From: Malacoraja senta
Taxonomy: Eukaryota
Assembly (NCBI GenBank): GCA_038087875.1
Contig: CM075995.1
Coordinates: forward strand, 5,334,001 to 5,398,000
DNA: 64,000 bases
Direction: 5' to 3'
Shown in pieces: positions 21,008 to 58,737 of the stretch; position 1 is the stretch's first letter; each line of letters opens with the position of its first letter. The notes beneath the pieces were generated by a model. The model was not told the origin of the DNA, made no database searches, and saw only the letters and a list, made by a program, of their open reading frames with translations. The position numbers were made by a program, and so were the translations under genes.

Positions 21008-21200
21008 TGCTCCCAAATCTACAGAACTGCTGTAGATTTGGGAGCAACAGCAGCAGGAGATTAGCAAGAGATACGACTGATTGGCTCTAGCCCGAGTGGG
21101 AGGAGAGAAGTGAGTCAGAGGGGGGAAAAACAGTTGAAAAGTAGAAGCCAAGCACAGGCAGACTTTATTCTTAATAGGACCAGTTAATTACTTATATAAG

Positions 21201-22154
21201 ATGGGTGGCCAGGAGATGTGCCAATACTGTGAGATGTGGGAAATTGTTGACACCATTGATGTAGATGATCCCTACAGCTGCAGTAAGTGTTTGAAGCTAG
21301 CGGAACTCGAGCTCCGCATTGATGAGCTGGAGACCCAACTTCATACGCTGCGGTGCATCAGGGAGGGAGAGTATTACCTGGATGTTTTGTGCCAGGGGAT
21401 GGTCACACCGACCAGTTTAACTAATTCAGTAGTTAGTGAGCAGGGAAAGGAAGGTGTGGCCATAAGGGAGGCAGGTAGGGGGAACCAGGAGGAGATGCGG
21501 CAGGAGCCACAGCCCTTGTCCCTGACGAGCATGACCGAGGCTCTTACTCAATGTGAGGACGGGATCAGGGGCTGTGGGAGGGATGAGCAACCTGGCTGCA
21601 GCACCGTGGATCAGGGGGCCATTCAAGAGGGGGGAGTTAGAAGAAATGCCGTGGTGATAGGGGATAGTATTATTCGGGGGGTAGATAAGGTTCTCTGCGG
21701 CCAGCAGAACATGTCCCGAAGGCTGTGTTGCCTACCCGGTGCTAGGGTTAAGGATATCTCTGCGATGCTGGAGAGAAATTTGCAGAGTGAGGGGGAGGAT
21801 CCAGTGGTCGTGGTCCATGTGGGGACCAATGACATAGGAAGGACGAGGAAGGAGGATCTGCTGAACGAGTTTGAGCAGTTAGGGAATAAATTAAAAAGCA
21901 GAACCTCGAGGGTACTGATCTCCGGATTGCTACCTGAGCCACGGGCCAAATCGGCGAGGGTACGAAAAATTAAAAAGCTGAATGCGTGGCTCAAAGACTG
22001 GTGTGGGAAAAATGGGTTTGGTTTCTTGGGCCACTGGCACCAGTACTGGGACAGGGGGGATCTGTTCTGTAAGGACGGACTTCACCTGAACGGTGCTGGG
22101 ACTGGGGTCCTGGCAAATCATATAACTAGGGCAGTAGAGAGGTCTTTAAACTAA
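21201..22154 (+). CDS. CR1 ORF1p: zinc finger, coiled coil, SGNH/GDSL esterase domain (317 aa)
   Basis: CxxC...CxxC N-terminus, GDSII, LPGA, HVGTND, DGLHL motifs. Confidence 0.93.
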   Translation: MGGQEMCQYCEMWEIVDTIDVDDPYSCSKCLKLAELELRIDELETQLHTLRCIREGEYYLDVLCQGMVTPTSLTNSVVSEQGKEGVAIREAGRGNQEEMRQEPQPLSLTSMTEALTQCEDGIRGCGRDEQPGCSTVDQGAIQEGGVRRNAVVIGDSIIRGVDKVLCGQQNMSRRLCCLPGARVKDISAMLERNLQSEGEDPVVVVHVGTNDIGRTRKEDLLNEFEQLGNKLKSRTSRVLISGLLPEPRAKSARVRKIKKLNAWLKDWCGKNGFGFLGHWHQYWDRGDLFCKDGLHLNGAGTGVLANHITRAVERSLN

Positions 22155-25138
22155 GTAGCGGGGGGGAGGTATCAAGGGGGGTAATAACGGCAGGGGTAGA
22201 GGAAATAGAGCAGGGTATCAGTGGGGAAACGGAAAATCAAAATGTGACAGGAGGATCCAGAATGTGTGAAGATAAAGCTCTAGATGTAAAAGGGGCAAAA
22301 ACAGAAAGGAAGGGTAGTAAAAATCATCTGAAAGTGCTGTATCTAAATGCACGGAGTATTCGAAATAAGATAAATGAATTAACGGTGCAATTAAGTACAT
22401 ATAGTTATGATATCGTGGCCATTACGGAGACATGGCTGCAAGGGGATCAGGATTGGGAGTTAAATATAGAGGGGTACTCGACAATTAGAAAAGATAGACA
22501 GGAAAGAAAGGGAGGAGGGGTGGCCCTTTTAATAAGGGAGGGAATAACGGCAATAGCGAGGAAGGATATTGCGTTGAAGGATCAGGATAGTGAAACAGCT
22601 TGGGTACAGATAGAGAATAACAAGGGGAAAAAAACACTAGTGGGTGTAATTTATAGACCTCCAAATAGCTGTGACGCTGTTAGTCAGAACATAAATCTGC
22701 AAATAGTTGACGCATGTAAAAAGGGAACTGCTGTAATCATGGGGGACTTCAATTTTCATATTAATTGGGCAAACCAAACTGGGCAGGGTAGACTAGAGGA
22801 AGAGTTTATAGAATGTATTAGAGACGGGTTCCTAGAACAGTATGTCACAGAACCGACAAGGAGGGAGGCAATCTTGGATCTGGTCCTGTGTAATGAAGCA
22901 GGATTAATTAAAAATGTCATAGTTAGGGACTCGTTGGGAACAAGTGACCACAATATGGTCGAATTCCATATTCAAATAGAAGGAGAGCAGGTTGAAACTC
23001 AGGCTAGGGTACTTAGTCTAAATAAAGGGGATTATGAAGGTATGAGGACTGAGCTGATCAAAGTTGACTGGGATAGCAGACTCAAGAATAAGACGGTACA
23101 TGAGCAGTGGTGTACGTTTAAGGATCTACTGTATAACCTTCAAGAAAAATTTATTCCTATGAAGAAAAAAAGAGGTAAGGGAAAGAACAGTCAGCCATGG
23201 CTCAGTAAAACTATAAAGGATAGTATTCGGCTGAAGGCAAGGGCATATAAGGTAGCTAGAGATAGTGGGAGGGTAGAGGATTGGGAAGCATTTAAAGGTC
23301 AGCAAAAAATAACTAAGAGATTAATTAAGACAGGGAAAATAGACTATGAAAGGAATTTAGCGAACAACATAAAAACTAATAGTAAGAGTTTTTATAGTTA
23401 TATAAAAAGAAAAAGGGTGGCTAAGGTGAACGTTGGTCCATTGGAGGGTGAGACTGGAGAGTTGTTGGTGGGGAACATGGAAATGGCAAAGGCATTAAAC
23501 GAGTATTTTGTATCAGTCTTCACCATAGAAGACACAAAAAATATTCCAACGCTGGATAAACAGGGGGCGGTAGGAATGGAGGAGCTAAATACTATTAAGA
23601 TCACCAAGGAGGTGGTATTAGGGAAATTAATGAGACTGAAGGAGGATAAATCCCCTGGGCCTGATGGATTACATCCAAGGGTCTTGAGGGAGATAGCGGT
23701 GGGGATTGTGGATGCATTGGTGATAATTTTCCAAAACTCCCTGGAGGCAGGAACGGTCCCAGTGGATTGGAAAATGGCCAATGTAACACCTATATTTAAA
23801 AAAGGAAGTAAACAGAAGGCGGGTAACTATAGACCGGTTAGTCTAACATCGGTGGTGGGTAAAATGTTAGAGACAATTATTAAAGAAACACTAACGGGGC
23901 ACTTGGATAAACATGACTTCATCGGACAGAACCAGCATGGTTTTGTGAAGGGGAAGTCCTGTTTAACGAATCTGCTCGAATTCTTTGAGGAAGTAACAAC
24001 CCGGGTGGATAAAGGGGAACCGGTGGATGTGGTATACTTGGACTTCCAAAAGGCTTTTGACAAGGTGCCACATAAGAGACTATTGCTAAAAATAAAAAAT
24101 TATGGGATTGGGGGTAATATATTAGCATGGGTAGAGGATTGGCTAACAAATAGGAAGCAGAGAGTGGGGATAAATGGTTCATACTCGGGATGGCAACCGG
24201 TAACTAGCGGGGTTCCGCAAGGGTCGGTGCTGGGACCCCAGTTGTTCACAATTTATATAAATGATTTGGAGGAGGGAACCAAGTGTAATGTATCAAAATT
24301 TGCGGACGATACAAAAATGGGAGGAAAAGTAGGGGATGAGGAGGATAGGAAGAGTCTGCAAAAGGATATAGATAAGCTAGGTGAGTGGGCAACAACTTGG
24401 CAGATGAAATTTAATACTAATAAATGTGAAGTCATTCACTTTGGGAAAAAAAATGATAGGGCAAGTTATTTTCTAAATGAGGTGGAGCTGCGTTGTAATG
24501 CAACGCAAAGGGATCTAGGGGTAGTAGTACATGAATCACTAAAAGTTAGTATGCAGGTGCAGCAAGCAATCAGGAAGGCCAATGGAGTTTTGGCCTTTAT
24601 TGCTAGGGGGATTGAGTATAAAAACACGGAGGTCTTGCTGCAGCTGTACACAGTATTAGTGAGACCACATTTGGAATACTGTGTACAGTTCTGGGGTCCA
24701 TACTTAAGAAAGGATGTACTGGCCCTGGAGGCAGTGCAGCGAAGGTTTACAAGATTAATTCCTGCAATGAGGGGATTGACATATGAGGAAAGGTTAAGTA
24801 GGCTGGAACTCTACTCTTTGGAGTTTAGAAGAATGAGAGGCGATCTCATTGAAACATATAAGATCGTGAGGGGCCTTGATCGGGTGGATGCACCGAGGAT
24901 GTTCCCAATGATCGGGGAAACTAGAACTAGGGGACATAGTTGTAGAATAAGAGGGGGCTCTTTTAAAACTGAGATGAGGAAGAACTTCTTCACCCAGAGG
25001 GTGGTTAATTTATGGAATTCACTGCCCCAGGGAGCAGTGGAAGCAGAAACATTAAATATATTTAAGTCTAAAATAGATGGTTTTTTAGCTGCCAAGGGGA
25101 TAAGGGGCTACGGGGAGAGGGCAGGGATATGGACCTAG
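22145..25138 (+). CDS. CR1 ORF2: APE endonuclease plus reverse transcriptase (frame open from the slippery site; first ATG at 22262)
   Basis: YLNARS, ITETWL, YRPP, GDFN, SDHN endonuclease motifs; YRPVSLTS, QGSVLGP, FADD RT motifs; no internal stops. Confidence 0.95.
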   Translation, partial: FKLSSGGEVSRGVITAGVEEIEQGISGETENQNVTGGSRMCEDKALDVKGAKTERKGSKNHLKVLYLNARSIRNKINELTVQLSTYSYDIVAITETWLQGDQDWELNIEGYSTIRKDRQERKGGGVALLIREGITAIARKDIALKDQDSETAWVQIENNKGKKTLVGVIYRPPNSCDAVSQNINLQIVDACKKGTAVIMGDFNFHINWANQTGQGRLEEEFIECIRDGFLEQYVTEPTRREAILDLVLCNEAGLIKNVIVRDSLGTSDHNMVEFHIQIEGEQVETQARVLSLNKGDYEGMRTELIKVDWDSRLKNKTVHEQWCTFKDLLYNLQEKFIPMKKKRGKGKNSQPWLSKTIKDSIRLKARAYKVARDSGRVEDWEAFKGQQKITKRLIKTGKIDYERNLANNIKTNSKSFYSYIKRKRVAKVNVGPLEGETGELLVGNMEMAKALNEYFVSVFTIEDTKNIPTLDKQGAVGMEELNTIKITKEVVLGKLMRLKEDKSPGPDGLHPRVLREIAVGIVDALVIIFQNSLEAGTVPVDWKMANVTPIFKKGSKQKAGNYRPVSLTSVVGKMLETIIKETLTGHLDKHDFIGQNQHGFVKGKSCLTNLLEFFEEVTTRVDKGEPVDVVYLDFQKAFDKVPHKRLLLKIKNYGIGGNILAWVEDWLTNRKQRVGINGSYSGWQPVTSGVPQGSVLGPQLFTIYINDLEEGTKCNVSKFADDTKMGGKVGDEEDRKSLQKDIDKLGEWATTWQMKFNTNKCEVIHFGKKNDRASYFLNEVELRCNATQRDLGVVVHESLKVSMQVQQAIRKANGVLAFIARGIEYKNTEVLLQLYTVLVRPHLEYCVQFWGPYLRKDVLALEAVQRRFTRLIPAMRGLTYEERLSRLELYSLEFRRMRGDLIETYKIVRGLDRVDAPRMFPMIGETRTRGHSCRIRGGSFKTEMRKNFFTQRVVNLWNSLPQGAVEAETLNIFKSKIDGFLAAKGIRGYGERAGIWT

Positions 25139-25465
25139 GTATGGTTAGTATAGTAAGACCTGAGTGATCTCCTGGACAAGTGTCGATCGCCTGGATTGGG
25201 GTCGGAGAGGAATTTCCCGGATTTTTTTCCCGAATTGGACCTGGGTTTTTATCCGGTTTTTTGCCTCCCCCAGGAGATCACGCGGTTCTTGGGGTGGAGA
25301 GGGGTGATAGCGATATAAAGGGGAGGGTAGTGTCTTGTGTTCTGTGTCTTGTGTCTACTGTTTGTGGGTAAGGGTGTCTGTTTAGTGTTCAGCCCTGAGC
25401 GAATGGCGGTGCGGGCTCGATGGGCCTGGTGGTCTACTCTCGCACCTACTTTCTATGTTTCTATG

Positions 25466-26820
25466 ATACTTAGAGATAATATATATAAGCATCTGGATAA
25501 ACAGGGGCTGATTAGGAACAGTCAACATGGATTTGTGCCTGGAAGGTCATGTTTGACTAATCTTCTTGAATTTTTTGAAGAGGTTACTCGGGAAATTGAT
25601 GAGGGTAAAGCCATGGATGTTGTATATATGGACTTCATTAAGGCCTTTGACAAGGTTCCTCACGGAAGGTTGGTTAAGAAGGTTCAATGGTTGGGTATTA
25701 ATGGTGGAGTAGCAAGATGGATTCAACAGTGGGTGAATGGGAGATGCCAGAGAGTAATGGTGGATGGTTGTTTGTCAGGTTGGAGGCCAGTGACTAGTGG
25801 GGTTCCACAGCGATCTGTGTGGGGTCCACTGTTGTTTGTCATGTACATCAATGATCTGGATGATGGTGTGGTAAATTGGATTAGTAAGTATGCAGATGAT
25901 ACTAAGATAGCTGGGGCTGTGGATAATGAAGTAGATTTTCAAAGTCTACAGAGAGATTTATGCCGGTTGGAAGAGTGGGCTGGAAGATGGCAGATGGAGT
26001 TTAATGCTGATAAGTGTGAGGTGCTACATCTTGGCAGGACAAATCAAAATAGGACGTACATGGTAAATGGTAGGGAATTGAAGAATGCAGGTGAACAGAG
26101 GGATCTTGGAATAACTGTGCACAGTTCCCTGAAAGTGGAATCTCATGTAGATAGGGTGGTAAAGAAAGCTTTTGGTGTGCTGGCTTTTATAAATCAGAGC
26201 ATTGAGTATAGAAGTTGGGATGTAATGTTAAAATTGTACAAGGCATAGGTGAGGCCAATTCTGGAGTATGGTGTACAATTTTGGTCGCCTAATTATAGGA
26301 AGGATGTCAACAAAATAGAGAGAGTACAGAGGAGATTTACTAGAATGTTGCCTGGGTTTCAGCAACTAAGTTACAGAGAAAGGTTGAACAAGTTAGGGCA
26401 TTATTCTTTGGAGCGCAGAAGGTTAAGGGGGGACTTGATAGAGGTCTTTAAAATAATGAGAGGGATAGACAGAGTTGCCGTGGATAAGCTTTTCCCACTG
26501 AGAGTAGGGAAGATTCAAACAAGGGGACATGACTTGAGAATTAAGGGACAGACGTTTAGGGGTAACATGAGGGGGAACTTCTTTACTCAGAGAGTGGTGG
26601 CTGTGTGGAATGAGCTTCCAGTGAAGGTGGTGGAGGCAGGTTCGTTTTTATCATTTAAAAATAAATTGGATAGTTATATGGACGGGAAAGGAATGGAGGG
26701 TTATGGTCTGAGCGCAGGTATATGGAACTAGGGGAGAATACGTGTTCGGCACGGACTAGAAGGGTCGAGATGGCCTGTTTCCGTGCTGTAATTGTTATAT
26801 GGTTATATGGTTATATGGTT
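25466..26820 (+). mobile_element. CR1 element B, 3' part (premature stop at ~26246)
   Basis: RT (YADD) and C-terminus; (TTATATGG)n tail. Confidence 0.93.
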
Positions 26821-27880
26821 ATTGTTGTTCCACTGTCATCCCTGCTAGGATATCTTTCCAGTTAACTTTGGCCAGTTCCTCCCTCATGGCTCCATTGTTC
26901 AATTGTAATACTGACACCACCGATTTTCCCTTCTCCCTCTCAAATTGTAGATTAAAACTTATCATATTATGGTCACTACCTCCTAATGGCTCCTTAACCT
27001 CAAGTTCCCTTATCAAATCCGGTTCATTACACAACACTAAATCCAGGATTGCCTTCTCCCTGGTAGGCTCCAGTTCAAGCTCCTCTAAGAATCCATCACG
27101 GAGGCACTCCACAAACTCCCTTTCTTGGGGTCCAATACCAACCTGATTTACCCAGTCTACCTGCATCTTGAAATTCCCATAACAACCGTAGTATTACCTT
27201 TACGACATTCCAATTTTAACTCTTGATTCAATTTGCACCCTATGTCCAGGCTACTGTTTGGGGGCATGTAGATATGTCCCATTAGGTTCTTTTTACCCTT
27301 ACAATTCCTCAGTTCTATCCATACTGACTACATCTCCTGATTCTATGTCACCCCTCGCAAAGGACTGAATTTCATTCCTCACCAACAGAGCTACCCCACC
27401 CCCTCTGCCCACCTGCCTGTCTTTTCGATAGGACGTAAACCCTTGAATATTCAGTTCCCAGCCCTGGTCCTCTAGCAGCCATGTCTCTGTAATTCCCACA
27501 ACATCATACCTGCCAATTTCTAACTGAGCCTCAAGCTCACCCACTTTATTTCATATACGTCGTGCATTCATATACAACACTTTAACTTCGGTCACTATTG
27601 GCCCTGACCTTACTCTCTTATCCCTTCTCGAACTTTCCTTCCCATTAATTCGGGAGTCTTTTGTAACTTTTCCTGCACTCACTTCCCCTTTAACTCCATC
27701 TTTATACTCCCAATTTGTCAATCCCTCCCACCCACTATTTAGTTTAAACCCACACGTGTAGCCCTAGCAAATCTGCCTGCCGGAACGTTGGCCCCCCTCC
27801 AGTTGAGGTGTAACCCGTCCCTTTTGTACAGGTCACCCCTGCCCCAGAAGAGACCCCAGTGGTCTATAAAGCTAAATCCT
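26821..27880 (-). mobile_element. CR1 element A, 5' part (end of ORF1 and endonuclease domain, degenerate)
   Basis: GITETWL, GGGVALLV, GSDHN; ORF1 end AGRFARATRVGLN* with stop at 27739-27741. Confidence 0.92.
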
Positions 27881-27974
27881 GGAAAGAAATTGGAAAGAAA
27901 TTCACTCTGCAAGTTTGGAGCTCACTGATTTATCAATAGCCCTTTTTGCTCAGGAAAGTCTAGGACCACAGTGT

Positions 27975-28279: not shown

Positions 28280-29030
28280 TTACATTTAGGTTTATTATCG
28301 CCACATATTCCGAGGGATTGTGGGAAGTTTTGTTTTGCATGCTATCCAATCAAATCAGGTAATACTATATATGAATACAATCAAGCCAATCTCAAGCACA
28401 ATACGTAGGCAAAGGAGAAGACACAGAGTGCAGAATATAGTTCTCAGCATTGTAGCGTAACAGTTCCAGAGACGGAGTCCAATGTCCGCAATGAGATGGG
28501 TTAGAGAATTGTGTGTATACCCAAGTTTATGGAAGGACCGTTCAGAAGCCTGACAACAGAGGGGATGAAACAGTTCCCGAGTCTGGTGGTGCGCACTTTC
28601 AAGCTCCTGTATCTTCTGCCAAACAGGAGCAGGGAGAAAAAGGAATGACGTGGAATGAGAAAGGTCTTTGATTATGTTGGCTGCTTTCTCGAGGCAGATG
28701 GATTCAATGGTGGGGAGTCTGGTCTGTGTGATGGACTGGGCTACCTCCAGAACGTTTTGCGATTTCTTATTGTCTTGGCCAGAGCAGATACCAAACCAAG
28801 CTGTGATGCAACCCGACAGTATGCTTTCTATGGTGCATCTGTACAAGTTTGTAAGAGTCATTAGAAACTTGTGTGATGACCTCAGTGTCCTGAGGAAGTT
28901 AGAGGCATTGTCTGTCGCTTCAACGTGGTTGGTCCAGCTCAGATTTTTGGTAATATTTTTGCCAAGAAACTTGAAGCTCTCAATCATTTCCACTTTGGCA
29001 CCATTTATACAGATTGGGGCATTGACCCCA
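28280..29030 (-). mobile_element. Rex/Babar-like LINE 3' fragment
   Basis: ESFKFLG...LSWTNH...YRCTIESILSGCITAWFG in ORF 28355-29035. Confidence 0.8.
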
Positions 29031-29034
29031 CACA

Positions 29035-29800
29035 CTACTGCCTCACGGTGCCAGAGACCCAGGCTCGATGCTGACTACGTGGGTGCTGTCTGCACAGAGT
29101 TTGTATGTTCTCCCCGTGACCTCGTGGGTTTTCTATGGGAGCTTCTGTTTCCACCAACACTCCAGAGACGTACAGGTTTGTAGGTTAATTGGCTTCGGTA
29201 ACGATTGTAAATTGTGCCTAGAGTAGGATAGCACCGGTGTGCGGGGATCGCTGGTCGGCGCGGACTCGGTGAACCGAAGGGCCTGTTCCCGCGCTCTATC
29301 ACTAAACTAAACTGAAGTCAATAACTCCTTCCTCTTGCTGACTGATTGGGGTTTGAGCACATTGTCCCAGACTTGAGCTCTCCCATGGAAGGACAGAGAC
29401 ATTGAATTAATCCAATAATGGCTCCCTCAATCTGCTATGAATTATCAGCAAAGAAGTTGTGCTCACATTTAACCTGATTGATGGGACGATTGAAAGATAC
29501 AGTATGGAAACCGGATCTTGGGTCCACTAAGTTCTTGCTGACCATCGGTGTCCCGTTCACACTAGTTCTATGATATCCCACTTTCGTATCCACTCCCGGC
29601 ACACTAATTCACAGGGACCAATTAACCTACAAACCCGCACGTCTTTGGAACGTGGGTGGAAACCAGAGCACCCGGATGAAACCTAGTGGTCACAGGGAGA
29701 ACGTGCAAACTCCGCACAGACGACACCCGAGGCCAGGCTCGAACCCGGGTCTCTGGCGCTGTGTGGCAGCAGCTCCACCCGCTGCATCACCGTGCCGCCT
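29035..29800. mobile_element. Two V-SINE copies (~29035-29312 +, ~29490-29800 -)
   Basis: Central domain, tails and tRNA-like head. Confidence 0.8.
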
Positions 29801-39136: not shown

Positions 39137-42100
39137 TCAGTATCCCGTACCTGCCTTCTCTCCATACCCCCTGATCCCTTTAGCCACAAGGGCCACATCT
39201 AATTCCCTCTTAAATATAGCCAATGAACTGGCCTCAACTACCCTCTGTGGCAGAGAGTTCCAGAGATTCACCACTCTCTGTGTGAAAAAGTTTTTCCTCA
39301 TCTCGGTCTTAAAGGATTTTCCCCTTATCCTTAAGCTGTGACCCCTTGTCCTGGACTTCCCCAACATCGGGAACAATCTTCCTGCATCTAGCCTGTCCAA
39401 CCCCATAAGAATCTTGTACGTTTCTATAAGATCCCCTCTCAATCTCCTAAATTCTAGCGAGTATAAGCCAAGTCTATCCAGTCTTTCTTCATATGAAAGT
39501 CCTGACATCCCAGGAATCAGTCTGGTGAACCTTCTCTGCACTCCCTCTATGGCTATAATGTCCTTCCTCAGATTTGGAGACCAAAACTGTACGCAATACT
39601 CCAGGTGTGGTCTCACCAAGACCCTGTACAACTGCAGTAGAACCTCACTGCTCCTATACTCAAATCCTCTTGCTATGAAGGCCAACATACCATTCGCTTT
39701 CTTCACTGCCTGCTGCACCTGCATGCCTACTTTCAATGACTGGTGTACCATGACACCCAGGTCTCGCTGCATCTCCCCATTTCCTAATCGGCCACCATTT
39801 AGATAATAGTCTGCCTTCCCGTTTTTGCTACCAAAGTGGATAACCTCACATTTATCCACATTATACTGCATCTGCCAAACATTTGCCCACTCACCCAGCC
39901 TATCCAAGTCACCTTGCAGTCTCCTAGCATCCTCCTCACAGCTAACACTGCCCCCCAGCTTAGTGTCATCCGCAAACTTGGAGATGTTGCTTTCAATTCC
40001 TTCGTCCAGATCATTAATATAAATTGTAAATAGCTGGGGTCCCAGCACTGAGCCTTGTGGTACCCCACTAGTCACTGCCTGCCATTGTGAAAAGGACCCG
40101 TTTACTCCTACTCTTTGCTTCCTGTTTGCCAGCCAGTTCTCTATCCACATCAATACTGAATCCCCAATACCGTGTGATTTAAGTTTGTATCCTAATCTCT
40201 TATGTGGTACCTTGTCGAAAGCCTTCTGAAAGTCCAGATACAACACATCCACTGGTTCTCCCCTATCCACTCTACTAGTTACATCCTCGAAAAATTCTAT
40301 AAGATTCGTCAGACACGATTTACCTTTCGTAAATCCATGCTGACTTTGTCCAATGATTTCACCACTTTCCAAATGTGCTGCTATCCCATCTTTAATAACT
40401 GACTCTAGCAGTTTCCCCACTACCGATGTTAGACTAACTGGTCTGTAATTCCCCGTTTTCTCTCTCCCTCCCTTCTTAAAAAGTGGGGTTACGTTTGCTA
40501 CCCTCCAATCCTCAGGAACTACTCCAGAATCTAAAGAGTTTTGAAAAATTATCACTAATGCATCCACTATTTCTGGAGCTACTTCCTTAAGTACTCTGGG
40601 ATGCAGCCTATCTGGCCCTGGTGATTTATCGGCCTTTAATCCATTCAATTTACCCAACACCACTTCCCGACTAACCTGGATTTCACTCAGTTCCTCCATC
40701 TCCTTTGACCCGCGGCCCCCTGCTATTTCCGGCAGATTATTTATGTCTTCCTTAGTGAAGACGGAACCAAAGTAGTTATTCAATTGGTCTGCCATATCCT
40801 TGTTCCCCATGATCAATTCACCTGTTTCTGACTGCAAGGGACCTACATTTGATTTAACTAATCTCTTTCTCTTCACATATCTATAAAAACCTTTGCAGTC
40901 AGTTTTTATGTTCCCTGCCAGTTTCCTTTCATAATCTATTTTCCCTTTCCTAATTAAGCCCTTTGTCCTCCTCTGCTGGTCTCTGAATTTCTCCCAGTCC
41001 TCTGGTATGCTGCTTTTTCTGGCTAATTTGTACGCATCATCTTTTGCTTTGATACTATCCCTGATTTCCCTTGTTATCCACGGATGCACTACCTTCCTTG
41101 ATTTATTCTTTTGCCAAACTGGGATGAACAATTTTTGTAGTTCATCCATGCAGTCTTTAAATGCCTTCCATTGCATATCCACCGTCAACCCTTTTAGAAC
41201 TAATTGCCAGTCAATCTTGGCCAATTCACGTCTCATACCCTCAAAGTTACCTTTCTTTAAGTTCAGAACCGTTGTTTCTGAATTAACAATGTCACTCTCC
41301 ATCCTAATGAAGAACTCAACCATATTATGATCACTCTTGCCCAAGGGGGCACGCACAACAAGTCTGCTAACTAACCCTTCCTCATTACTCAATACCCAGT
41401 CTAGAATAGCCTGCTCTCTCGTTGGTTCCTCTACATGTTGGTTTAGATAACTATACCTCATACATTCCAAGAAATCCTCTTCCTCAGCACCCCTGCCAAT
41501 TTGATTCACCCAATCTATATGTAGATTGAAGTCACCCATTATAACTGTTTTGCCTTTGTTGCACGCATTTCTAATTTCCTGTTTGATGCCATCCCCAACT
41601 TCACTACTACTGCTAGGTGGCCTGTACACAACGCCCACCAGCGTTTTCTGCCCCTTAGTGTTTCGCAGCTCTACCCATACCGATTCCACATCCTCCAAGC
41701 TAATGTCCTTCCTTTCCACTGCGTTAATCTCCTCTCTAACCAGCAACGCCACCCCACCTCCTTTTCCTTTCTCTCTATCCCTCCTGAATATTGAATATCC
41801 CTGGATGTTCAGCTCCCAGCCTTGGTCACCTTGGAGCCATGTCTCCGTGATCCCAACTATATCATAATCATTAATTGCTATCTGCACGTTCAACTCATCC
41901 ACCTTATTACGAATGCTCCTTGCATTGAGACACAAAGCCTTCAGACTTGTTTTTACAACGCTCTTACCCCTTATACAATTATGTTGAAAAGTGGCTCTTT
42001 TTGATTTTTGCCCTGGATTTGTCTGCCTGCCACTTTTACCTTTCACCTTGCTACCTATTGCTTCCGCCCGCATTTTACACCCCTCTGTTTCTCTGCTCAC

Positions 42101-42262
42101 CCATTTAAGAACCCCACCACCTCTTATTCTCTGTTTATTATTGTTTTCTTCTTTCCCCCCTACATGTTGGGTCTGAGTGCTTTCCTTCTCTGCCTCCTGC
42201 CTCACACACTGTCTAATAGCATTCTCTATTTGAGTCCCTCCCCCCAACCATTCTAGTTTAAA
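39137..42262 (-). CDS. CR1 ORF2: APE endonuclease plus RT (frame open from the slippery site; first ATG after it at 42073)
   Basis: CLNARS, ITETWL, GDFN, SDHN, YRPVSLTS, QGSVLGP, FADD; no stops. Confidence 0.95.
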   Translation of the reverse strand, partial: FKLEWLGGGTQIENAIRQCVRQEAEKESTQTQHVGGKEENNNKQRIRGGGVLKWVSRETEGCKMRAEAIGSKVKGKSGRQTNPGQKSKRATFQHNCIRGKSVVKTSLKALCLNARSIRNKVDELNVQIAINDYDIVGITETWLQGDQGWELNIQGYSIFRRDREKGKGGGVALLVREEINAVERKDISLEDVESVWVELRNTKGQKTLVGVVYRPPSSSSEVGDGIKQEIRNACNKGKTVIMGDFNLHIDWVNQIGRGAEEEDFLECMRYSYLNQHVEEPTREQAILDWVLSNEEGLVSRLVVRAPLGKSDHNMVEFFIRMESDIVNSETTVLNLKKGNFEGMRRELAKIDWQLVLKGLTVDMQWKAFKDCMDELQKLFIPVWQKNKSRKVVHPWITREIRDSIKAKDDAYKLARKSSIPEDWEKFRDQQRRTKGLIRKGKIDYERKLAGNIKTDCKGFYRYVKRKRLVKSNVGPLQSETGELIMGNKDMADQLNNYFGSVFTKEDINNLPEIAGGRGSKEMEELSEIQVSREVVLGKLNGLKADKSPGPDRLHPRVLKEVAPEIVDALVIIFQNSLDSGVVPEDWRVANVTPLFKKGGREKTGNYRPVSLTSVVGKLLESVIKDGIAAHLESGEIIGQSQHGFTKGKSCLTNLIEFFEDVTSRVDRGEPVDVLYLDFQKAFDKVPHKRLGYKLKSHGIGDSVLMWIENWLANRKQRVGVNGSFSQWQAVTSGVPQGSVLGPQLFTIYINDLDEGIESNISKFADDTKLGGSVSCEEDARRLQGDLDRLGEWANVWQMQYNVDKCEVIHFGSKNGKADYYLNGGRLGNGEMQRDLGVMVHQSLKVGMQVQQAVKKANGMLAFIARGFEYRSSEVLLQLYRVLVRPHLEYCVQFWSPNLRKDIIAIEGVQRRFTRLIPGMSGLSYEERLDRLGLYSLEFRRLRGDLIETYKILMGLDRLDAGRLFPMLGKSRTRGHSLRIRGKSFKTEMRKNFFTQRVVNLWNSLPQRVVEASSLAIFKRELDVALVAKGIRGYGEKAGTGY

Positions 42263-43188
42263 GTCTCCCCAGTAGCCTTTGCAGATCTCCCCGCCAGGAT
42301 ATCGGTCCCCCTCAGGTTCAAGTGCAACCCATCCTTTTTGTACAGGTCGAACCTTCCACAAAAGAAGTCCCAATGATCCAGAAATTTGAATCCCTGCCTT
42401 CTGCACCAGTCCTTCAGCCACGCATTAATCCTCCACCTCGCTCCATTCCTACTCTCACTGTCGCGTGGTACAGGCAGTAATCCCGAGATTGTTACCTTTG
42501 CTGTCCTTCTCTTTAACTCCCCTCCTAACTCCCTAAATTCTCCTTTCAGGACCTCTTCTCTTTTTTTACCTATGTCATTGGTACCTATATGTATCACGAC
42601 CTCGGGCTCCTCTCCCTGCCCTTTCAGGATGTCTTGGACACGTTGGGACACATCACAGACCCTGGCACCAGGGAGGCAAACTACCATCCGGGTCTCCCGA
42701 CTGCGTCCACAGAATCGCCTGTCTGACCCCCTAACTATAGAGTCCCCTATTAATATTGCCCTCCTCTTCTTTTCCTTACGCTTCTGAGCAACAGGACCGG
42801 TCTCTATACCGGAGGCCCGGCTGCTGTCGCTACCCCCAGGTAGGCTGTCCACCCCAACAGTGCTCAAACAGGAGTACTTATTGTCAAGGTGTACAGCCAC
42901 CAGGGTACTCTCTAGTCCCTGCCTGTGCCCCTTGCCTCTCCCAACCGTGATCCACTTGCCTGCCTCCTGTGGTGTTGGAGTGACCACATCCCTGTAACTC
43001 CTCTCAATGACTTCCTCGCTCTCCCTGACTAGACGGAGGTCATCGAGCTGCTGCTCCAGGTTCCTAATACGGTCCATTAGGAGCCCCATCTCGATACACC
43101 TGGCGCAGATGTGGACGTCTGGAGGGCTAACAGACTCCATGACTTCCCACATCTGACATCCAGAACAGTAAACTGCCCTGGCCGTCAT
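42253..43188 (-). CDS. CR1 ORF1p: zinc finger, coiled coil, SGNH esterase (311 aa from MTARAVYC)
   Basis: CSGC...CARC, GDSIV, LPGA, HIGTND, DGLHL. Confidence 0.93.
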   Translation of the reverse strand: MTARAVYCSGCQMWEVMESVSPPDVHICARCIEMGLLMDRIRNLEQQLDDLRLVRESEEVIERSYRDVVTPTPQEAGKWITVGRGKGHRQGLESTLVAVHLDNKYSCLSTVGVDSLPGGSDSSRASGIETGPVAQKRKEKKRRAILIGDSIVRGSDRRFCGRSRETRMVVCLPGARVCDVSQRVQDILKGQGEEPEVVIHIGTNDIGKKREEVLKGEFRELGGELKRRTAKVTISGLLPVPRDSESRNGARWRINAWLKDWCRRQGFKFLDHWDFFCGRFDLYKKDGLHLNLRGTDILAGRSAKATGETLN

Positions 43189-43210
43189 ACTCCCCTTACC
43201 CTGGATAGAA

Positions 43211-43334
43211 TATAAAACAAACTGATAGAATACAAAACAAACTGCTACAATACAAAACAAACTGCTACAATACAAAACAAACTGCTACAATACAAAACAA
43301 ACTGCTACAATACAAAACAAACTGCTACAATACA
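43211..43334. repeat. 20-bp tandem repeat, ~6 copies, in CR1 5' UTR
   Basis: Unit TACAAAACAAACTGCTACAA. Confidence 0.97.
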
Positions 43335-47173: not shown

Positions 47174-47183
47174 GACTAGGGAC

Positions 47184-50100
47184 AAGCATTTTATAATAAA
47201 GAGAACCGGATGAAACAACAAACATTGGAAAGGGAAATAAAGCAACTAGATATAGAAAATGCGAGAATGCCATCTACGTTAAAACATAATAAAATTGCTG
47301 CATTGAAATATAAATTAAACAAAATGTATTCAGAACATGTAATAAAGCTTTATCAACACACTAAACAATTACATTTTGAGTTCGGAGACAAACCTCAAAA
47401 ATTATTAGCACGTCAGCTACGAAAAATGCAGGGGGAAAAAATAATTCATAAAATTAGAACAGATACAGGAGAATTATTAAAACTGCCCAAGGACATAAAC
47501 GAGAGATTTCTCCAATACTATCATAATCTTTATTCAACTAAAACTGTAGTACAACCAGAAGGAACAGCAGAATGTTTACAAAAATGTAATTTAAAAGGTC
47601 TAGACTCAAAAGATAGAGAATTATTAGAAGCGGAGATTACGATAAAAGATATTGAAGTCTATTGGATCTTTAAAAAATGGTAAAGCAGTAGGACCAGATG
47701 GTTTAGGCTCTGAATTTTATAAAAAATTGTATGACTTGATCTCTCCACGTTTACAAAGGTTGTGTGAGCATATTTATACTCAACAGAAACTCCCAGATAC
47801 CTTAAACGAATCTATAATAACACTTATTCCAAAAGCTGATAAGGATCCAGAAGATCCAGGATCATATAGAGCAATTGCACTTTTAAATACAGATCAAAAA
47901 ATACTAACTAAAATTTTAGCGCACAGATTAAGTAAAGTGATGAATAAATTAATACACCCTGACCAAACAGGCTTTATTCAGAAACGGTATTCATATTTTA
48001 ATTTGAGAAGATTATTTAATATAATATACTCAAAGAGAATTATTAATGAAGATCTAGCAATAATCTCACTTGACGCTGAAAAAGCTTTTGATCAGGTGGA
48101 ATGGCCGTATTTATTTTCGGTGATGGAAAAATTACAGCTGGGCGATAAATTCTGCGCATGGATAAAACTGTTATATACCAACCCAACGACTAGAATATTA
48201 ACAAACCAAAGGTTATCATCTAAATTCAACTTATCTAGAGGTTACAGACAAGGATGCCCGTTATTTCCATTATTATTTGCGCTTGTTATCGAGCCACTCG
48301 CAGAGTTAGGACTCATCCGGAAATATATGGATATAACACAAAGGATACAGTGAATAAAATTTCTCTATATGCAGATGATGTATTAATTTACATTACAAAA
48401 CCAGAAATTAGTATTCCAAATTTACTAAAGCTAATAACCCAATTTGGGTCACTTTCTGGATATAGAATAAATTGGAATAAAAGTGAAATTATGCCAATAA
48501 GGGAACATAATAAACATATAACACAATTCCCGTTTAAAATAGTAAATGAAAAATTTAAATACCTAGGAATTTATGTCACTAAGATATATACATCATTATT
48601 TAAAGCAAATTTTCCCCCATTACTGAATAAACTACAAAAGAATATTCAGTACTGGAAAACTCTTCCTTTCTCAATGCTTGGTAAAATGAATGCCATAGAA
48701 ATGATTTTCTTACCGCAAATATTATACCTATTTCAAACAATTCCAATATACTTGCCAACATTTTTTTTTTAAGTTGGACTCCACTGTCAGTGATTTTATC
48801 TGGGATTATAAGAATCACAGGATAAGCAAAAAGCATCTGTGTAAATCGAAAATAAACGGAGGTTTGGTTTTACCAAACTTTTTGTTTTATTTTTGGGCAG
48901 TTAACATTAAAAATATGAATTTTTGGCTGGAAGAAATAGATCAACAACCAGATTGGTTAAAAATGGAAAAGGAAGATTGTTCACCATTTGAAATCGGCTC
49001 GATAATATTTGCTACTTCTAAATTAAACAAAAAAATTTATAGGGAAAATCCTATAATATATAGTGCTATGCGAATTTGGAAACAATTAAAAAATACATTA
49101 AAATTAGATAACATATCACTTTTTCTTCCAATCGCGAATAATCCTTTATTTAAGCCCTCATGGGTGGATTAACAATGGAAAAACTATGGAATTAAAAAGA
49201 TGGGACAACTTTACAAGGAAGGCACTTTTCTTTCATTTCAGGAATTGCAACAGACTTATGGACTTCAAGTAAATGATTTCTTTAGATATCTTCAACTTAG
49301 AGATTATGTAAAAGCAAATACCCAAAACTTTAGAATTAGAAATTCAGAAATTCTTGATCACTGTTGGAATAAACATCCTAATACAGAAAAATTAATATCT
49401 TATATATATAATATTTTATTAGATAGTGAAATTCCATCGACGGATTTACACAGACAAACATGGGAAAAAGAACTAAATCAAATAATAACGAAAGATACTT
49501 GGGAAGAAAGTTTACAACACATACATCAATGTTCATTAAATACCAGACACTCTCTAATACAATTTAAAGTAATACATAGGTTACATTATTCCAAAACAAA
49601 ATTAAATAAAATCTTCCCACATATCTCACCTATATGTGATAAATGCCAACATTTAGAGGCTAATTTATCTCATATGTTTGCAAATTGCATAAAAATTAAA
49701 AAATTCTGGGCAAATATTTTTTAGAATAATATCTAATGTGACGAGCACTCAATTGGACCCGGATCCAAAATTAATAATACTAGGAACATTAGAATTAAAT
49801 CAAACATTTACAACAACTCAAAGAAACTTTATTGATTATAGTATAATAACTGGGAAAAAATTAATTCTAAAATTTTGGAAAGGCCCTATAACCCCCACAA
49901 TCAAAATGTGGATTATAGAAATGACGGAGACCCTACACTTGGAAAGAATTAGACTTGTCCTGTTGGACAAACAAGAACTATTCGTTGGAACATGGTCTCC
50001 CTTTATTGATTATTTAAAGGGTCAGAACGGTTCAGCACGCGAACCTGACTAACACTCGAGCCAAGGAATAGATGAAATGTTCGGAAATGTACGAATATAC

Positions 50101-55462: not shown

Positions 55463-56530
55463 ATTCAGATTCAGATTCAGATTCAGAAAACTTTATTGTC
55501 TGTCGTAACAGAAAATCTTCTTTGGCGTGGCTCAACATACAAACAGGACAATGTACTGATAAGCTGTCATACAACACAGATTTCTGCGAGCACACACCGT
55601 GTGTATAGATCTTAAAAGCAAGTATAAGGATTAAAAACTGTAAAAATAGACAAGATGAAAGTTGTGGATTATTGTAAAGTGACAGTGCGTCAGGGTTAAT
55701 TTGTCCATTGTTCATTTTTTATTTAAGCTGTTTATGGCAATGGGTATGAATGAGTTTTTGTGGATGTTTTTCTTAGATAGGGGGACTTTATATCGGCGGC
55801 CTGATGGCAGAAGTTGGAAGGACTTGTGCAGGGGGTGGGTGGGATCCTGTGTAATGAGGTTGGCTTTCCTTTTAACTGCCTGGGTGTGAAGTACTGATAA
55901 TTGATTTTGAGTTTTGCCAGTTATTTTGCTTGCTTGATTGATGATCCGGGAAAGCTTTGATTTGTCTTTGACAGAGGTGAGGGTGAACCAGGATGTGATG
56001 TTAAAGGTGAGTACAGATTCTATAAGTGATTTATAGACAGCTGTTAAAATGTCCTGTCTGACATCAAATCTCCTGAGTTTTCTCAGCAGGAACAGGCGTT
56101 GCTGTGCCTTCTTGTACACAGAGTCTGTGTGCTGGGAGTAGGACAGGCGGGTGTCAATCTCTGTGCCCAGGTATCTAAAGGCCTCTACCTGCTCAACTGT
56201 CTGCCCATTCAGCCTCAGAGGTTCAAAGAGAGGTTGGGGGGAAGATGTCCGCCTCCCCCCACAACATAGCTCCTTGGTCTTGGAGATGTTAAGCTCCAGA
56301 GAGCTCTCTTTGATCCACAGCATCAGGGTGTTGACCTGCTGATAGTAGGCAGCCAGAGAAGTGTGATCCTTGATGTGGGCCACCAGGGCCATATCGTCTG
56401 CATACTTAAAAAGGGAAATGTCACTGTTATTGTTTGTTATGTTGTTTGTGTAGATGGAAAATAAAATCGGTGATAAAACACAACCCTGGGGGACACCAGT
56501 GTTTAAAATCATGTTCTTGGATTTAAAACA
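55463..56530 (-). mobile_element. Rex/Babar-like LINE, 5'-truncated, with an open RT C-terminal frame (55712-56551)
   Basis: NTGVPQGCVLSP, KYADD, FRYLG, AQQRLFLLRKL, DPTHPLH; (TCTGAA)n tail. Confidence 0.88.
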
Positions 56531-57554
56531 ATAGTGGCATTTAAGCCACATGATTATGTAGGTAATGAGGGGTACGGATCATGTACTCCGATACTTTCCT
56601 CCTGATGATAGAAGTGCAATGAGAGTGTGCCTAGGGTGCTGCTGGTCTTTGTTGATATTGGTTGCCTTTTTGAGGCAGCACCTCCAATGGATCCCAGCAA
56701 TGGCGGGAAGTCAGCATACGTGATGGTCTGGGCAGTGTCCACCACTCTCTGTAATCTCCTTAGTTCCTGGACGTTCGAATAGAGGGATATAGATCACGTG
56801 TCGTCAGATGCGATTAGTTTGTCTTGGAATTAAGTTAGGTACAGACATTGTGGGCTGATGGGCCTGAACCTATGCTGTACTCTTCTAAGTTCTATGTTCT
56901 ATGAAATAATAAACGGATATTTTGGCCTTGGCATTTATTTTTGTTCCTGAATGGCTCATTCCCATCTAGACTTTATAATTGATGTGTGTGAAAAGATTTA
57001 TGTTCCCTTGCAACATCATTTCATTGTTCCTTTTACTCTATAATTATTATTTTTGTTTTAATTCTTAGAATGTTTTGTACTCTCTTATTCATGGCTCTCT
57101 CTCTCTCTGTTGTCTTTATATTCCAAATCTGTCAATAACGTCATTATAAAAAAAAAATTCTGCTTGTTCTCCAATATCTTCTACAATCTTCTACAACTTT
57201 CATCGAACCCAGTTTCCAACCATCAGGCAACATTTTACGGTGATTGAAATCTGACTACCAATACAAAATTTGACCTGAGTTGGTGATTATTTTGTTTTAT
57301 TAAAAATATACAATATGCCCATGGTAAGACTGCGAGCTGATATTTGCTTACAATGCAGATCAATTTAATGGATCTCAGACACAACTGTCTGCATTTGGCC
57401 CATATCCCTCTAAACCTTTTCGTATCCATGTACCCATCCAAATGTTGTTATAGTACCTGCCTCAACTACCTCCTTTGGCAGCTCGTTCGAAAGACTCACC
57501 ACCCACTGTGTGAAAACACTGCCTCTTGTGTTCCTGTTCAATCTTTCCCCTCTG

Positions 57555-58737
57555 AATCCTGCCCTGAGCTGGTTCATCTCCTACCTCAAAGGTAGGAGTT
57601 TCTCGACTAACATAGGCAACTCTTTCTGCTCCCCAGCTAATCTCTGTTGTGGGGTTCCACAAGGTTCCATCCTTGGCCCCATTCTCTTCTCCCTGTATAT
57701 GCTCCACCTTAGGCCAAGTCATTGAAAGGCACGGCATTTCCTTCCATTGCTACGCAGACGATACACAACTCTATCTCCCCCTGAAGCCCAAAAACCAATC
57801 AAATCTGCTTAACCTTACCCACTGCCTCGAGGATATAAAGTGTTGGATGGCCCAGAACTTCCTCCAACTAAACGAGAGTAAGTCTGAGGTCATCCTTCTC
57901 GGCCCCTCAGACTCAATCAAAATGATAGCAGGCAGCCTTGGAAGCCTTGCCCCACTACTCAAACCTCACGTCAAAAACCTTGGCTGTGATATTTGACTCA
58001 GCACTGAAATTTGACAAACAAGTCAATGCCGTGGTAAAAGCTAGCTTCTTTCAGCTTTAGGACGATAGCTAAAATAAAATAATTCCTCCAGTTTGATGAC
58101 CTCGATAAGATCATCCACACATTCTTCTCCTCCCGCCTAGATTACTGCAACTCCCTTTACACTGGCATCAGCCAATCTTCCCTGACCCCGCCTGCAACTG
58201 GTCCAAAACACCGCAGCGAGACTCCTGACGGGCACCCGAAAAAGGGGACCACATCACCCCTATCCTGGCCTCTCTCCACTGGCTCCGTGTGGTTCCGTTA
58301 TAAACTTCAAGATCCTCCTCCATGTCTACAAAGCCCTCAATGGGCTTGCCCCCACCTACATAAAAAGTCTTCTCACCCACCACTCCACCTCCAGGCCCCT
58401 CAGATCGGCCAACTTGGGCTGCTGAATATCCCACGGTCTAGGCATAAGCTCAGGGGCGACCGTGCCTTTGCGGTTGCAGCCCCTAGACTGTGGAACAGCA
58501 TTCCCCCTTCCCATCAGAACTGCCCCCCTCCATCGACTCTTTTAAGTCAAGACTAAAGACTTATCTATACTCCCAAGCCTTTCCTGACGTCCTCTGAGTG
58601 AGGGCTACATATATATATGTATGTAGTTTGTTTTGTTTGTGCTATTCTTATAACAAATGTAAAGCACTTTTTGGCCAACGAGAGTTGTTTTTTAAATGTG
58701 CTATAATAAATAAATGTGACTTGACTTGACTTGACTT
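57555..58737 (+). mobile_element. L2-clade LINE 3' fragment (frameshifted), inserted in a CR1 fragment
   Basis: [53 protein letters not shown] 3' motif and (GACTT)n tail. Confidence 0.9.

Follow-up and report, generated by a model that had tools for sequence, protein, structure and literature searches.

How the second open reading frame (ORF2) of a LINE retrotransposon is translated is a long-standing question, which has been answered mainly for L1 and SART1, in both cases by unconventional initiation. The question is raised again by a decayed fragment on the minus strand of a 64,000-nucleotide stretch of Malacoraja senta DNA (the window), in which the end of an ORF1 combines a slippery heptamer, a stop codon and a row of G tracts. 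The original prediction, made from this single stretch, favoured -1 frameshifting into ORF2 with a canonical G-quadruplex and/or the adjoining stop as the stimulator. The fragment belongs to CR1, which excerpts from the literature rank first among the LINEs of turtles, crocodiles and birds and call prominent in several fish groups. Comparison across the clade suggests, with good probability, that CR1 elements with an esterase-type ORF1 express ORF2 by a programmed -1 frameshift, which would give an ORF1-ORF2 fusion.

The fragment, element A, is a dead CR1 copy of 1.06 kb (~27883 to 26820, minus strand), which retains ORF1 over its final 47 codons and ORF2 over its first third and is interrupted by stops and frame breaks. 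Being truncated at its 5' end, it cannot be active or translated as an element, but it preserves the signal. The ORF1 tail (27742..27883, minus, about 47 codons) corresponds to the C-terminal helix of an SGNH esterase and matches residues 298-343 of the ORF1 of element C, described below, at 63% in tblastn, while the remnant alone gave no Pfam match. At the 5' edge, the depth of related sequences falls to 0 at 27884-27900; a pyrimidine tract ending in CAG, which looks like a splice acceptor, also lies there (27880-27910, minus). At the other end, a 5'-truncated CR1 on the plus strand (25457-26820), which carries an 8-nt tail repeat, abuts element A and cuts it off at ~26820.

As originally described, the ORF1 of element A ends in GGT TTA AAC TAA on the minus strand, where the heptamer T_TTA_AAC (27742..27748, read from 27748 to 27742) makes up the final two codons, Leu-Asn, and adjoins the stop TAA (27739..27741). 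A TAG at 27764..27766, 18 nt before the heptamer, closes the -1 frame upstream, and the overlap contains no -1-frame ATG. From the heptamer on, the -1 frame is open for 65 codons (27554..27748, minus), comprising FKL, a 59-codon linker and the start of endonuclease motif I, until a TGA at 27553-27551 closes it. The predicted position of its first Met inside motif I was also confirmed: the ATG at 27571-27569 is codon 60 and stands in LY-M-NAR, directly before the motif I Asn. In an alignment made with the sequence of element B, motif I matches the first strand and the Asn of the human L1 endonuclease, so that a protein begun at this Met would be without the first endonuclease strand. Past the stop lies the G-run (27723..27733, minus), with a conserved core at 27731-27727 that corresponds to offsets 10-14 after the heptamer. 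The G3 tracts start at 27733, 27729, 27725 and 27711, with loops of 1, 1 and 11, the first beginning 8 nt past the heptamer, exactly as had been reported for this copy; the fourth tract (27709..27711), which belongs to Trp-Glu codons of the -1 frame, is not conserved across CR1. The remainder of element A is a decayed ORF2 endonuclease and following region (26822..27583, minus), which resembles residues 6-326 of the ORF2 of element B (tblastn, 42%) and carries a PF03372 match at 27320-27550 (Pfam) and no reverse transcriptase (RT) part.

Relatives of element A were collected from three contig sets and one RNA run at 80% likeness. At position 27730, the relatives have G instead of T in 96-97% of the depth in all three contig runs and in 21 of 26 RNA reads, so that family A reads G7-A-G3 and the spelling GGG-T-GGG is a private mutation of this copy. 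The TGA at 27553 is also private, since 97-98% of the relatives' depth differs there, while the heptamer, the stop and the other G's are untouched among the 40 differences listed of 108. A dip in depth at 27578-27595 and an accumulation of loose ends at 27583/27597 indicate that element A has probably lost ~18 nt of linker, near 27584-27597. The original caveat, namely that this copy might have lost part of the linker or an ATG, seems justified for the linker. A manual reading of the -1 frame in the relatives' consensus of the loose ends at 27583 gave no ATG in frame. The poly(A) RNA run came from another organism, and 246 of its 418 placed reads were under 90% alike. RNA first mates over 27704-27775 were ~2-3 times commoner on the plus than on the minus strand, a bias that would mark the sense strand of the element, provided that the library was made by the common stranded protocol, and these reads give weak evidence that relatives of element A are transcribed. 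In run X22, 6 of 33 RNA reads also have a G-run one base longer at 27726, a variant that stays at <1% of the depth in the three contig runs.

The window also holds two intact CR1 copies of other subfamilies. Element B (21138..25138, plus) has an ORF1 that runs to 22154 and an open -1 ORF2 with endonuclease and RT; its junction consists of the heptamer at 22145-22151, a TAA stop and a G7 run at 22160-22166. Element C (39137..43284, minus), of a further subfamily, also has an open -1 ORF2, and its heptamer (42262-42256) is followed by a TAG stop and a G6 run at 42245-42240. Both other ORF1/ORF2 junctions of the window therefore share the heptamer plus stop of element A, whose heptamer thus exceeds chance. 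The ORF1s of B and C are 40% identical and both contain PF13472 (SGNH esterase) above the cut-off, while the ORF2 of B contains PF03372 and PF00078. The elements were assigned to CR1 of the esterase type by the arrangement of their domains and by similarity to proteins of birds and sharks. Kapitonov and Jurka (2003) is reportedly the reference for CR1-clade elements with an SGNH esterase in ORF1. The layout is the same as that given for the clade in excerpts of Schneider et al. 2013 (PMC3905857), that is, a GDSL/SGNH domain in ORF1 and an APE endonuclease and RT in ORF2. Decayed ORF2 fragments of other LINE types were also seen in the window, at 47180-50052 (plus), 28355-29074 (minus), 55712-56578 (minus) and 57414-58556. 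From their look, we take these fragments to be L1/Tx1-like, Rex-like and L2-like.

To extend the comparison beyond the window, metagenome contigs were scanned with an ORF1 profile, which yielded 80 loci, 11 of them with an endonuclease match as well. Nineteen were read at the ORF1 end and comprised 14 CR1-type junctions, two loci that end earlier, two that are L2-like and one of another kind; the other 61, weak SGNH matches or shortened stretches, lie outside the junction count. Together with A, B and C, 17 DNA junctions of shark, bird and other types were thus compared. The heptamer is TTTAAAC in 14 of them, GTTAAAC in one and decayed in two, and a stop follows it directly in 15 of the 17. 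ORF2 lies in the -1 frame relative to ORF1, and this frame stays open exactly from the heptamer on, so that an X_XXY_YYZ heptamer in the 0 frame is combined with an open -1 ORF. Twelve junctions are bird-type by motif likeness to proteins P0042 and P0060, seven of these coming from one data set; as the twelve are not independent, about five or six lineages remain. Given x-Leu-Asn, the probability of T+TTA+AAC calculated from the codon use of six ORF1s is 0 to 0.015 in each lineage, and in the 32 codons before the heptamer the third positions agree by only 22-59% among A, B, C and the loci L001, L002 and L008, two observations which indicate that the constraint on the heptamer acts on nucleotides. 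Slippage at the heptamer is highly probable, judged from sequence, frames and conservation, and frameshifting at U_UUA_AAC into ORF2 is supported much more strongly by the clade than by the copy on which it was first proposed.

The same layout in element A could in principle be an accident of decay, with an ATG lost and a G-run arisen by chance, as the copy is truncated, has private stops and a probable linker loss, and CR1 sense strands are G-rich. However, the same heptamer, stop and G core are found in the intact B and C and in families outside the window, and two intact families have no linker Met either. An accident is thus very improbable, and it is largely refuted for the heptamer and the G core. 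The exact spelling GGG-T-GGG is such an accident.

Two further loci of the scan, L014 (1119-1500) and L015 (1319-1600), are L2-type elements whose esterase ORF1 is closed by an in-frame TGA and whose ORF2 follows on without a change of frame. Since these ORF1s end differently, the esterase fold does not need a Leu-Asn (LN) end. An NPGP motif occurs in L015 ~25 codons past the TGA, which we presume to be 2A-like, and readthrough or StopGo in place of a slip is possible in these two loci.

The ends of ORF1 proteins were consistent with the DNA junctions. An LN end is shared by 28 of 39 ORF1 homologues, including those of sharks, rays and a bony fish, and turtle and monitor lizard ORF1 proteins have it too. 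The named homologues would place the host of the window among the cartilaginous fishes. The invariant LN of alignment A1 is a biased count, because its 25 members of the 39 (with C added) were picked for a complete C-terminus. A more distant set consisted of the best 150 representatives at 50% identity, of which 105 hold a DGLHL-like motif. Sixty-two of these end in N (45 in LN, 10 in GN including 9 in QGN, 3 in KN and 4 in another xN), and 43 end otherwise. Among the 17 non-LN proteins ending in N, G or K precedes the final residue in 13, against an expected 0.20 (p 8e-7, kinship ignored), and most of the GN ends fall in one clade. Nine further proteins, again of one clade, have KN 26 residues past the motif and a stop several codons later, while a few distant ORF1s end near GF or FF (proteins P0242-P0342 include QGN, SKN, GF and FF-type ends). 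In a tree of 104 proteins (FastTree, midpoint root), which serves only as a guide, LN ends turn up in several clades, and most of the GN, KN and FF-type ends group in one. Excerpts of Atkins et al. (PMC5009743) place G_GGA_AAC, A_AAA_AAC, G_GGU_UUU and U_UUA_AAC among the most shift-prone heptamers. The GN, KN and GF ends, known as protein only, would fit the first three, which suggests that distant esterase ORF1s exchange one classic slippery heptamer for another at their ends. DNA searches for the GN and KN families in viral contigs and plasmids gave nothing useful. A search for longer ORF1 forms returned five proteins, of which P0040 and P0042 run through the junction as FKL; being gene models or mutated copies, they show no mechanism and were set aside.

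The ATG codons around the junction bear on other routes into ORF2. Six of nine open DNA linkers (B, C, L002, L003, L004 and L008) contain an in-frame Met, which stands between codon 5 and codon 64, and the linkers of A, L001 and L011 have none. Among nine database proteins that span FKL to motif I, six are without Met. In the P0174 family (974 aa, intact ORF2), a cluster of 57 proteins, three of the four members showing the linker have no Met between FKL and motif I, and the first Met lies past motif I; one member of the cluster is labelled sturgeon but flagged as a contaminant. The same absence is seen in all three of P0193/5/7 (998 aa, intact ORF2). The N-terminal M of P0174 and P0193 was called 26-30 codons upstream, where the codon may be ATG or GTG; in the DNA of L001, which is 91% like the P0174 representative, it reads GTG, and a stop closes the frame. 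Two families with an intact ORF2 thus have no linker Met, which argues that the missing ATG of element A is not just decay and that AUG reinitiation cannot serve all families. An ATG in the overlap upstream of the slip site was rejected as a start, as no -1-frame ATG is found there in any of the 17 junctions. Within 30 nt of the stop, a -1-frame ATG occurs in four junctions, all bird-type, each time 5 nt past the first base of the stop, so that a conserved in-frame AUG at or beside the ORF1 stop, as expected for SART1 or TURBS, was not found among the 17.

In L1 and SART1, according to excerpts of PMC2881922, translation of ORF2 needs that of ORF1 and proceeds by reinitiation or by recruitment of a new ribosome after ORF1. 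Initiation in L1 is considered AUG-independent in the literature. The lack of an ATG alone therefore excludes no reinitiation, the less so as six of nine linkers have a Met, and the original claim that it does so was overstated, although the lack itself extends to intact families. Termination-reinitiation or AUG-independent initiation of this kind, with the LN end kept as a protein constraint, could draw on these precedents, on the linker Mets and on the +5 Met of the four bird-type junctions. However, it would leave unexplained why synonymous bases of the heptamer are fixed across near-saturated lineages, why ends switch to GN and KN and why it is from the heptamer, exactly, that the -1 frame stays open; moreover, the Met, where there is one, stands anywhere from codon 5 to 64, and only 6 of 17 junctions have a TURBS-like TGGGA upstream, at varying places. 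It is accordingly quite unlikely. Splicing was also rejected, since a donor-like sequence at the stop is present only in some bird-type junctions, where it lies after the stop, and no RNA reads were found on any of the 15 joints listed of 63. Stop readthrough was rejected because the 0 frame of element A closes again 7 codons past the stop.

Past the heptamer, G is present at offsets 10, 11, 12, 13 and 14 in 16, 15, 15, 16 and 13 of 16 junctions, respectively, and at all offsets from 10 to 13 in 14 of them. Offsets 10 and 13, with G in 16/16, are third positions of -1 codons, while offsets 3-9 vary; the run also encodes Gly in the -1 frame, and in L003 it starts at offset 7, not 10. GGGGG occurs 0-3 times per 600 nt downstream. 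The conserved part, as far as these junctions indicate, is one G5 run at a fixed offset and not the canonical G-quadruplex. The leading edge of the ribosome is expected at about the 11th base past the heptamer.

A G-quadruplex might still stimulate the shift in family A or in all CR1. Excerpts of Yu et al. (PMC3919603) agree with the premise that RNA G-quadruplexes can stimulate -1 slippage in reporters, reporting behind UUUAAAC best spacers of 6-8 nt, which include the 8 nt of element A, and at most ~7% shifting; an RNA G-quadruplex also promotes +1 shifting in human HDAC1, as excerpts of PMC12809536 state. Copy A does have four G3 tracts that begin within 5-8 nt past the heptamer, its 60 nt fold at -7.2 kcal/mol with a G-quadruplex and -1.8 without (ViennaRNA), and the G7-A-G3 of its family can still supply three tracts. 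However, of 16 junctions only those of A and B have four G3 tracts with loops up to 12, and none has them with loops up to 7; the predicted fold includes a G-quadruplex in 5 of 16, three-tiered only in A, and L001, of an intact family, has a single G6 run followed by an A-rich stretch. In addition, the efficiency in Yu et al. fell as total loop length rose to 10 nt, and the 13 nt of element A exceed any loops tested there. Stimulation by a G-quadruplex is therefore unlikely. A weak or two-tier form is possible in some families, while the canonical one, which the original prediction took as a general feature, appears from these junctions to be a feature of two subfamilies and partly of A's own mutation.

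Folding gave no other candidate. For 16 stretches of 60 nt, z ranged from -1.5 to +1.7, with none below -2 and no conserved hairpin among nested folds, and one of 15 folds of 100 nt was below -2. The stable hairpin 5-9 nt downstream that marks canonical -1 frameshifting was thus not found, again in a model without pseudoknots, and Rfam gave no match in 20000-44000. Long-range pairing of the G-run was rejected, as the best duplexes in seven elements were near shuffle levels or at unrelated places. What was found is a short unstructured motif at a fixed spacer of ~10 nt, which is the arterivirus-type arrangement. The heptamer and slow termination might suffice, with the G-run kept for a Gly-rich linker or another role, as the stop is adjacent in 15 of 17 junctions and neither a conserved hairpin nor, in the seven elements, a shared long-range partner was seen. 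Against this reading, which we consider unlikely, G is fixed at two third-codon positions (16/16) while offsets 3-9 vary, and the nine proteins of the KN clade reach their stop only several codons further on, which may mean that adjacency is not needed. The G-run itself is likely to have a role. That it acts by binding a protein is a more tentative suggestion, drawn by analogy, and is favoured here on account of the start at the 11th base, as in PRRSV, and the lack of predicted structure.

In the proposed mechanism of frameshifting, a ribosome finishing ORF1 would have UUA in the P site and AAC in the A site. Most ribosomes would terminate at the next codon and release ORF1p, while a minority would slip back one base to UUU and AAA and read the former stop through as CUA. 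The slipped ribosomes would cross the low-complexity linker into the endonuclease and reverse transcriptase, and the product would be an ORF1-ORF2 fusion at a low ratio, like Gag and Gag-Pol. Slow termination at the adjoining stop might assist slippage. The stimulator would most likely be no fold, but about five single-stranded G's from the 11th base past the heptamer, at the leading edge of the ribosome, which may act via a bound protein, either a host G-run binder or ORF1p. As candidate binders we assume hnRNP F/H, GRSF1, CNBP and ORF1p itself.

The closest parallels are viral. Coronavirus and retrovirus -1 frameshifting uses the same heptamer U_UUA_AAC, with a structural ORF upstream and the polymerase ORF in the -1 frame; CR1, in contrast, has no conserved hairpin or pseudoknot-like stem at 5-8 nt, as far as nested folds indicate, and the host of the signal is a LINE. 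The arterivirus PRRSV shifts by -1/-2 in nsp2 under transactivation by PCBP and nsp1beta, and excerpts of PMC7939443 describe a C-rich motif that lies 11 nt beyond the slip site, is bound by protein and has no predicted structure, so that both systems have an unstructured, homopolymer-rich motif from 11 nt. However, the CR1 motif is G-rich and not C-rich, the heptamer differs and the binder is putative, which makes this a likeness by layout. Compared with G-quadruplex-stimulated shifting, as excerpted from PMC3919603 (synthetic, -1) and PMC12809536 (HDAC1, +1), A and B also have G tracts 8 nt past UUUAAAC, whereas the four tracts are not conserved in CR1 and the third loop is long. Taken by analogy, the CR1 case would work like viral -1 frameshifting, fails on a structural stimulator and resembles the protein-stimulated arterivirus type in layout.

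Among retroelements, L1 and SART1 resemble CR1 in their bicistronic LINE RNA and in the dependence of ORF2 on ORF1 translation, but they make a separate ORF2p by unconventional initiation, whereas the CR1 slip site implies a fusion (excerpts of PMC2881922 and PMC5009743). Frameshifting in retroelements without LTRs is already in print in the excerpted sources: Penelope-like elements, of another clade than CR1, combine a frameshift with a pseudoknot after ORF1 (PMC8557442), and Drosophila HeT-A shifts within gag, not from ORF1 to ORF2 (PMC5009743). In the literature searched, no report of a frameshift between CR1 ORF1 and ORF2 was found; classic CR1 descriptions, which lie outside that scope, may note the overlap. 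In the CR1 and ORF1 papers searched by term, the matching passages do not mention frameshifting for these elements, and those of the chicken report concern ALVE retroviruses.

The conserved slip site makes the question testable by a 100-nt reporter insert. If a fusion is indeed made, a lipid-binding esterase would be tethered to the endonuclease and RT. The slip site would also account for the scattered or internal Mets at which gene-calling programs begin CR1 ORF2, and such starts bear on which CR1 copies count as intact. As a stimulator, the G-run would be of a new type in either case, folded or protein-bound. A protein-switched G-run would be a non-viral counterpart of arterivirus transactivated frameshifting and could give a host a means of controlling CR1 mobility. 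Doubtful as yet is the widest reading, in which a whole animal LINE branch, from sharks to birds and probably invertebrates, makes a Gag-Pol-like fusion by a shift that a G-run-bound protein switches on and the host could control.

Outside animal sequences, viral contigs contained no CR1 relatives, with one weak non-CR1 match, and plasmids gave no match. GTDB contigs yielded six weak SGNH loci in prokaryote assemblies. In addition, a CR1-type ORF2 protein, P0050, which is 44% identical to the endonuclease region of element B, is filed under Carnobacterium maltaromaticum on a 3-kb contig, where it is probably host contamination.
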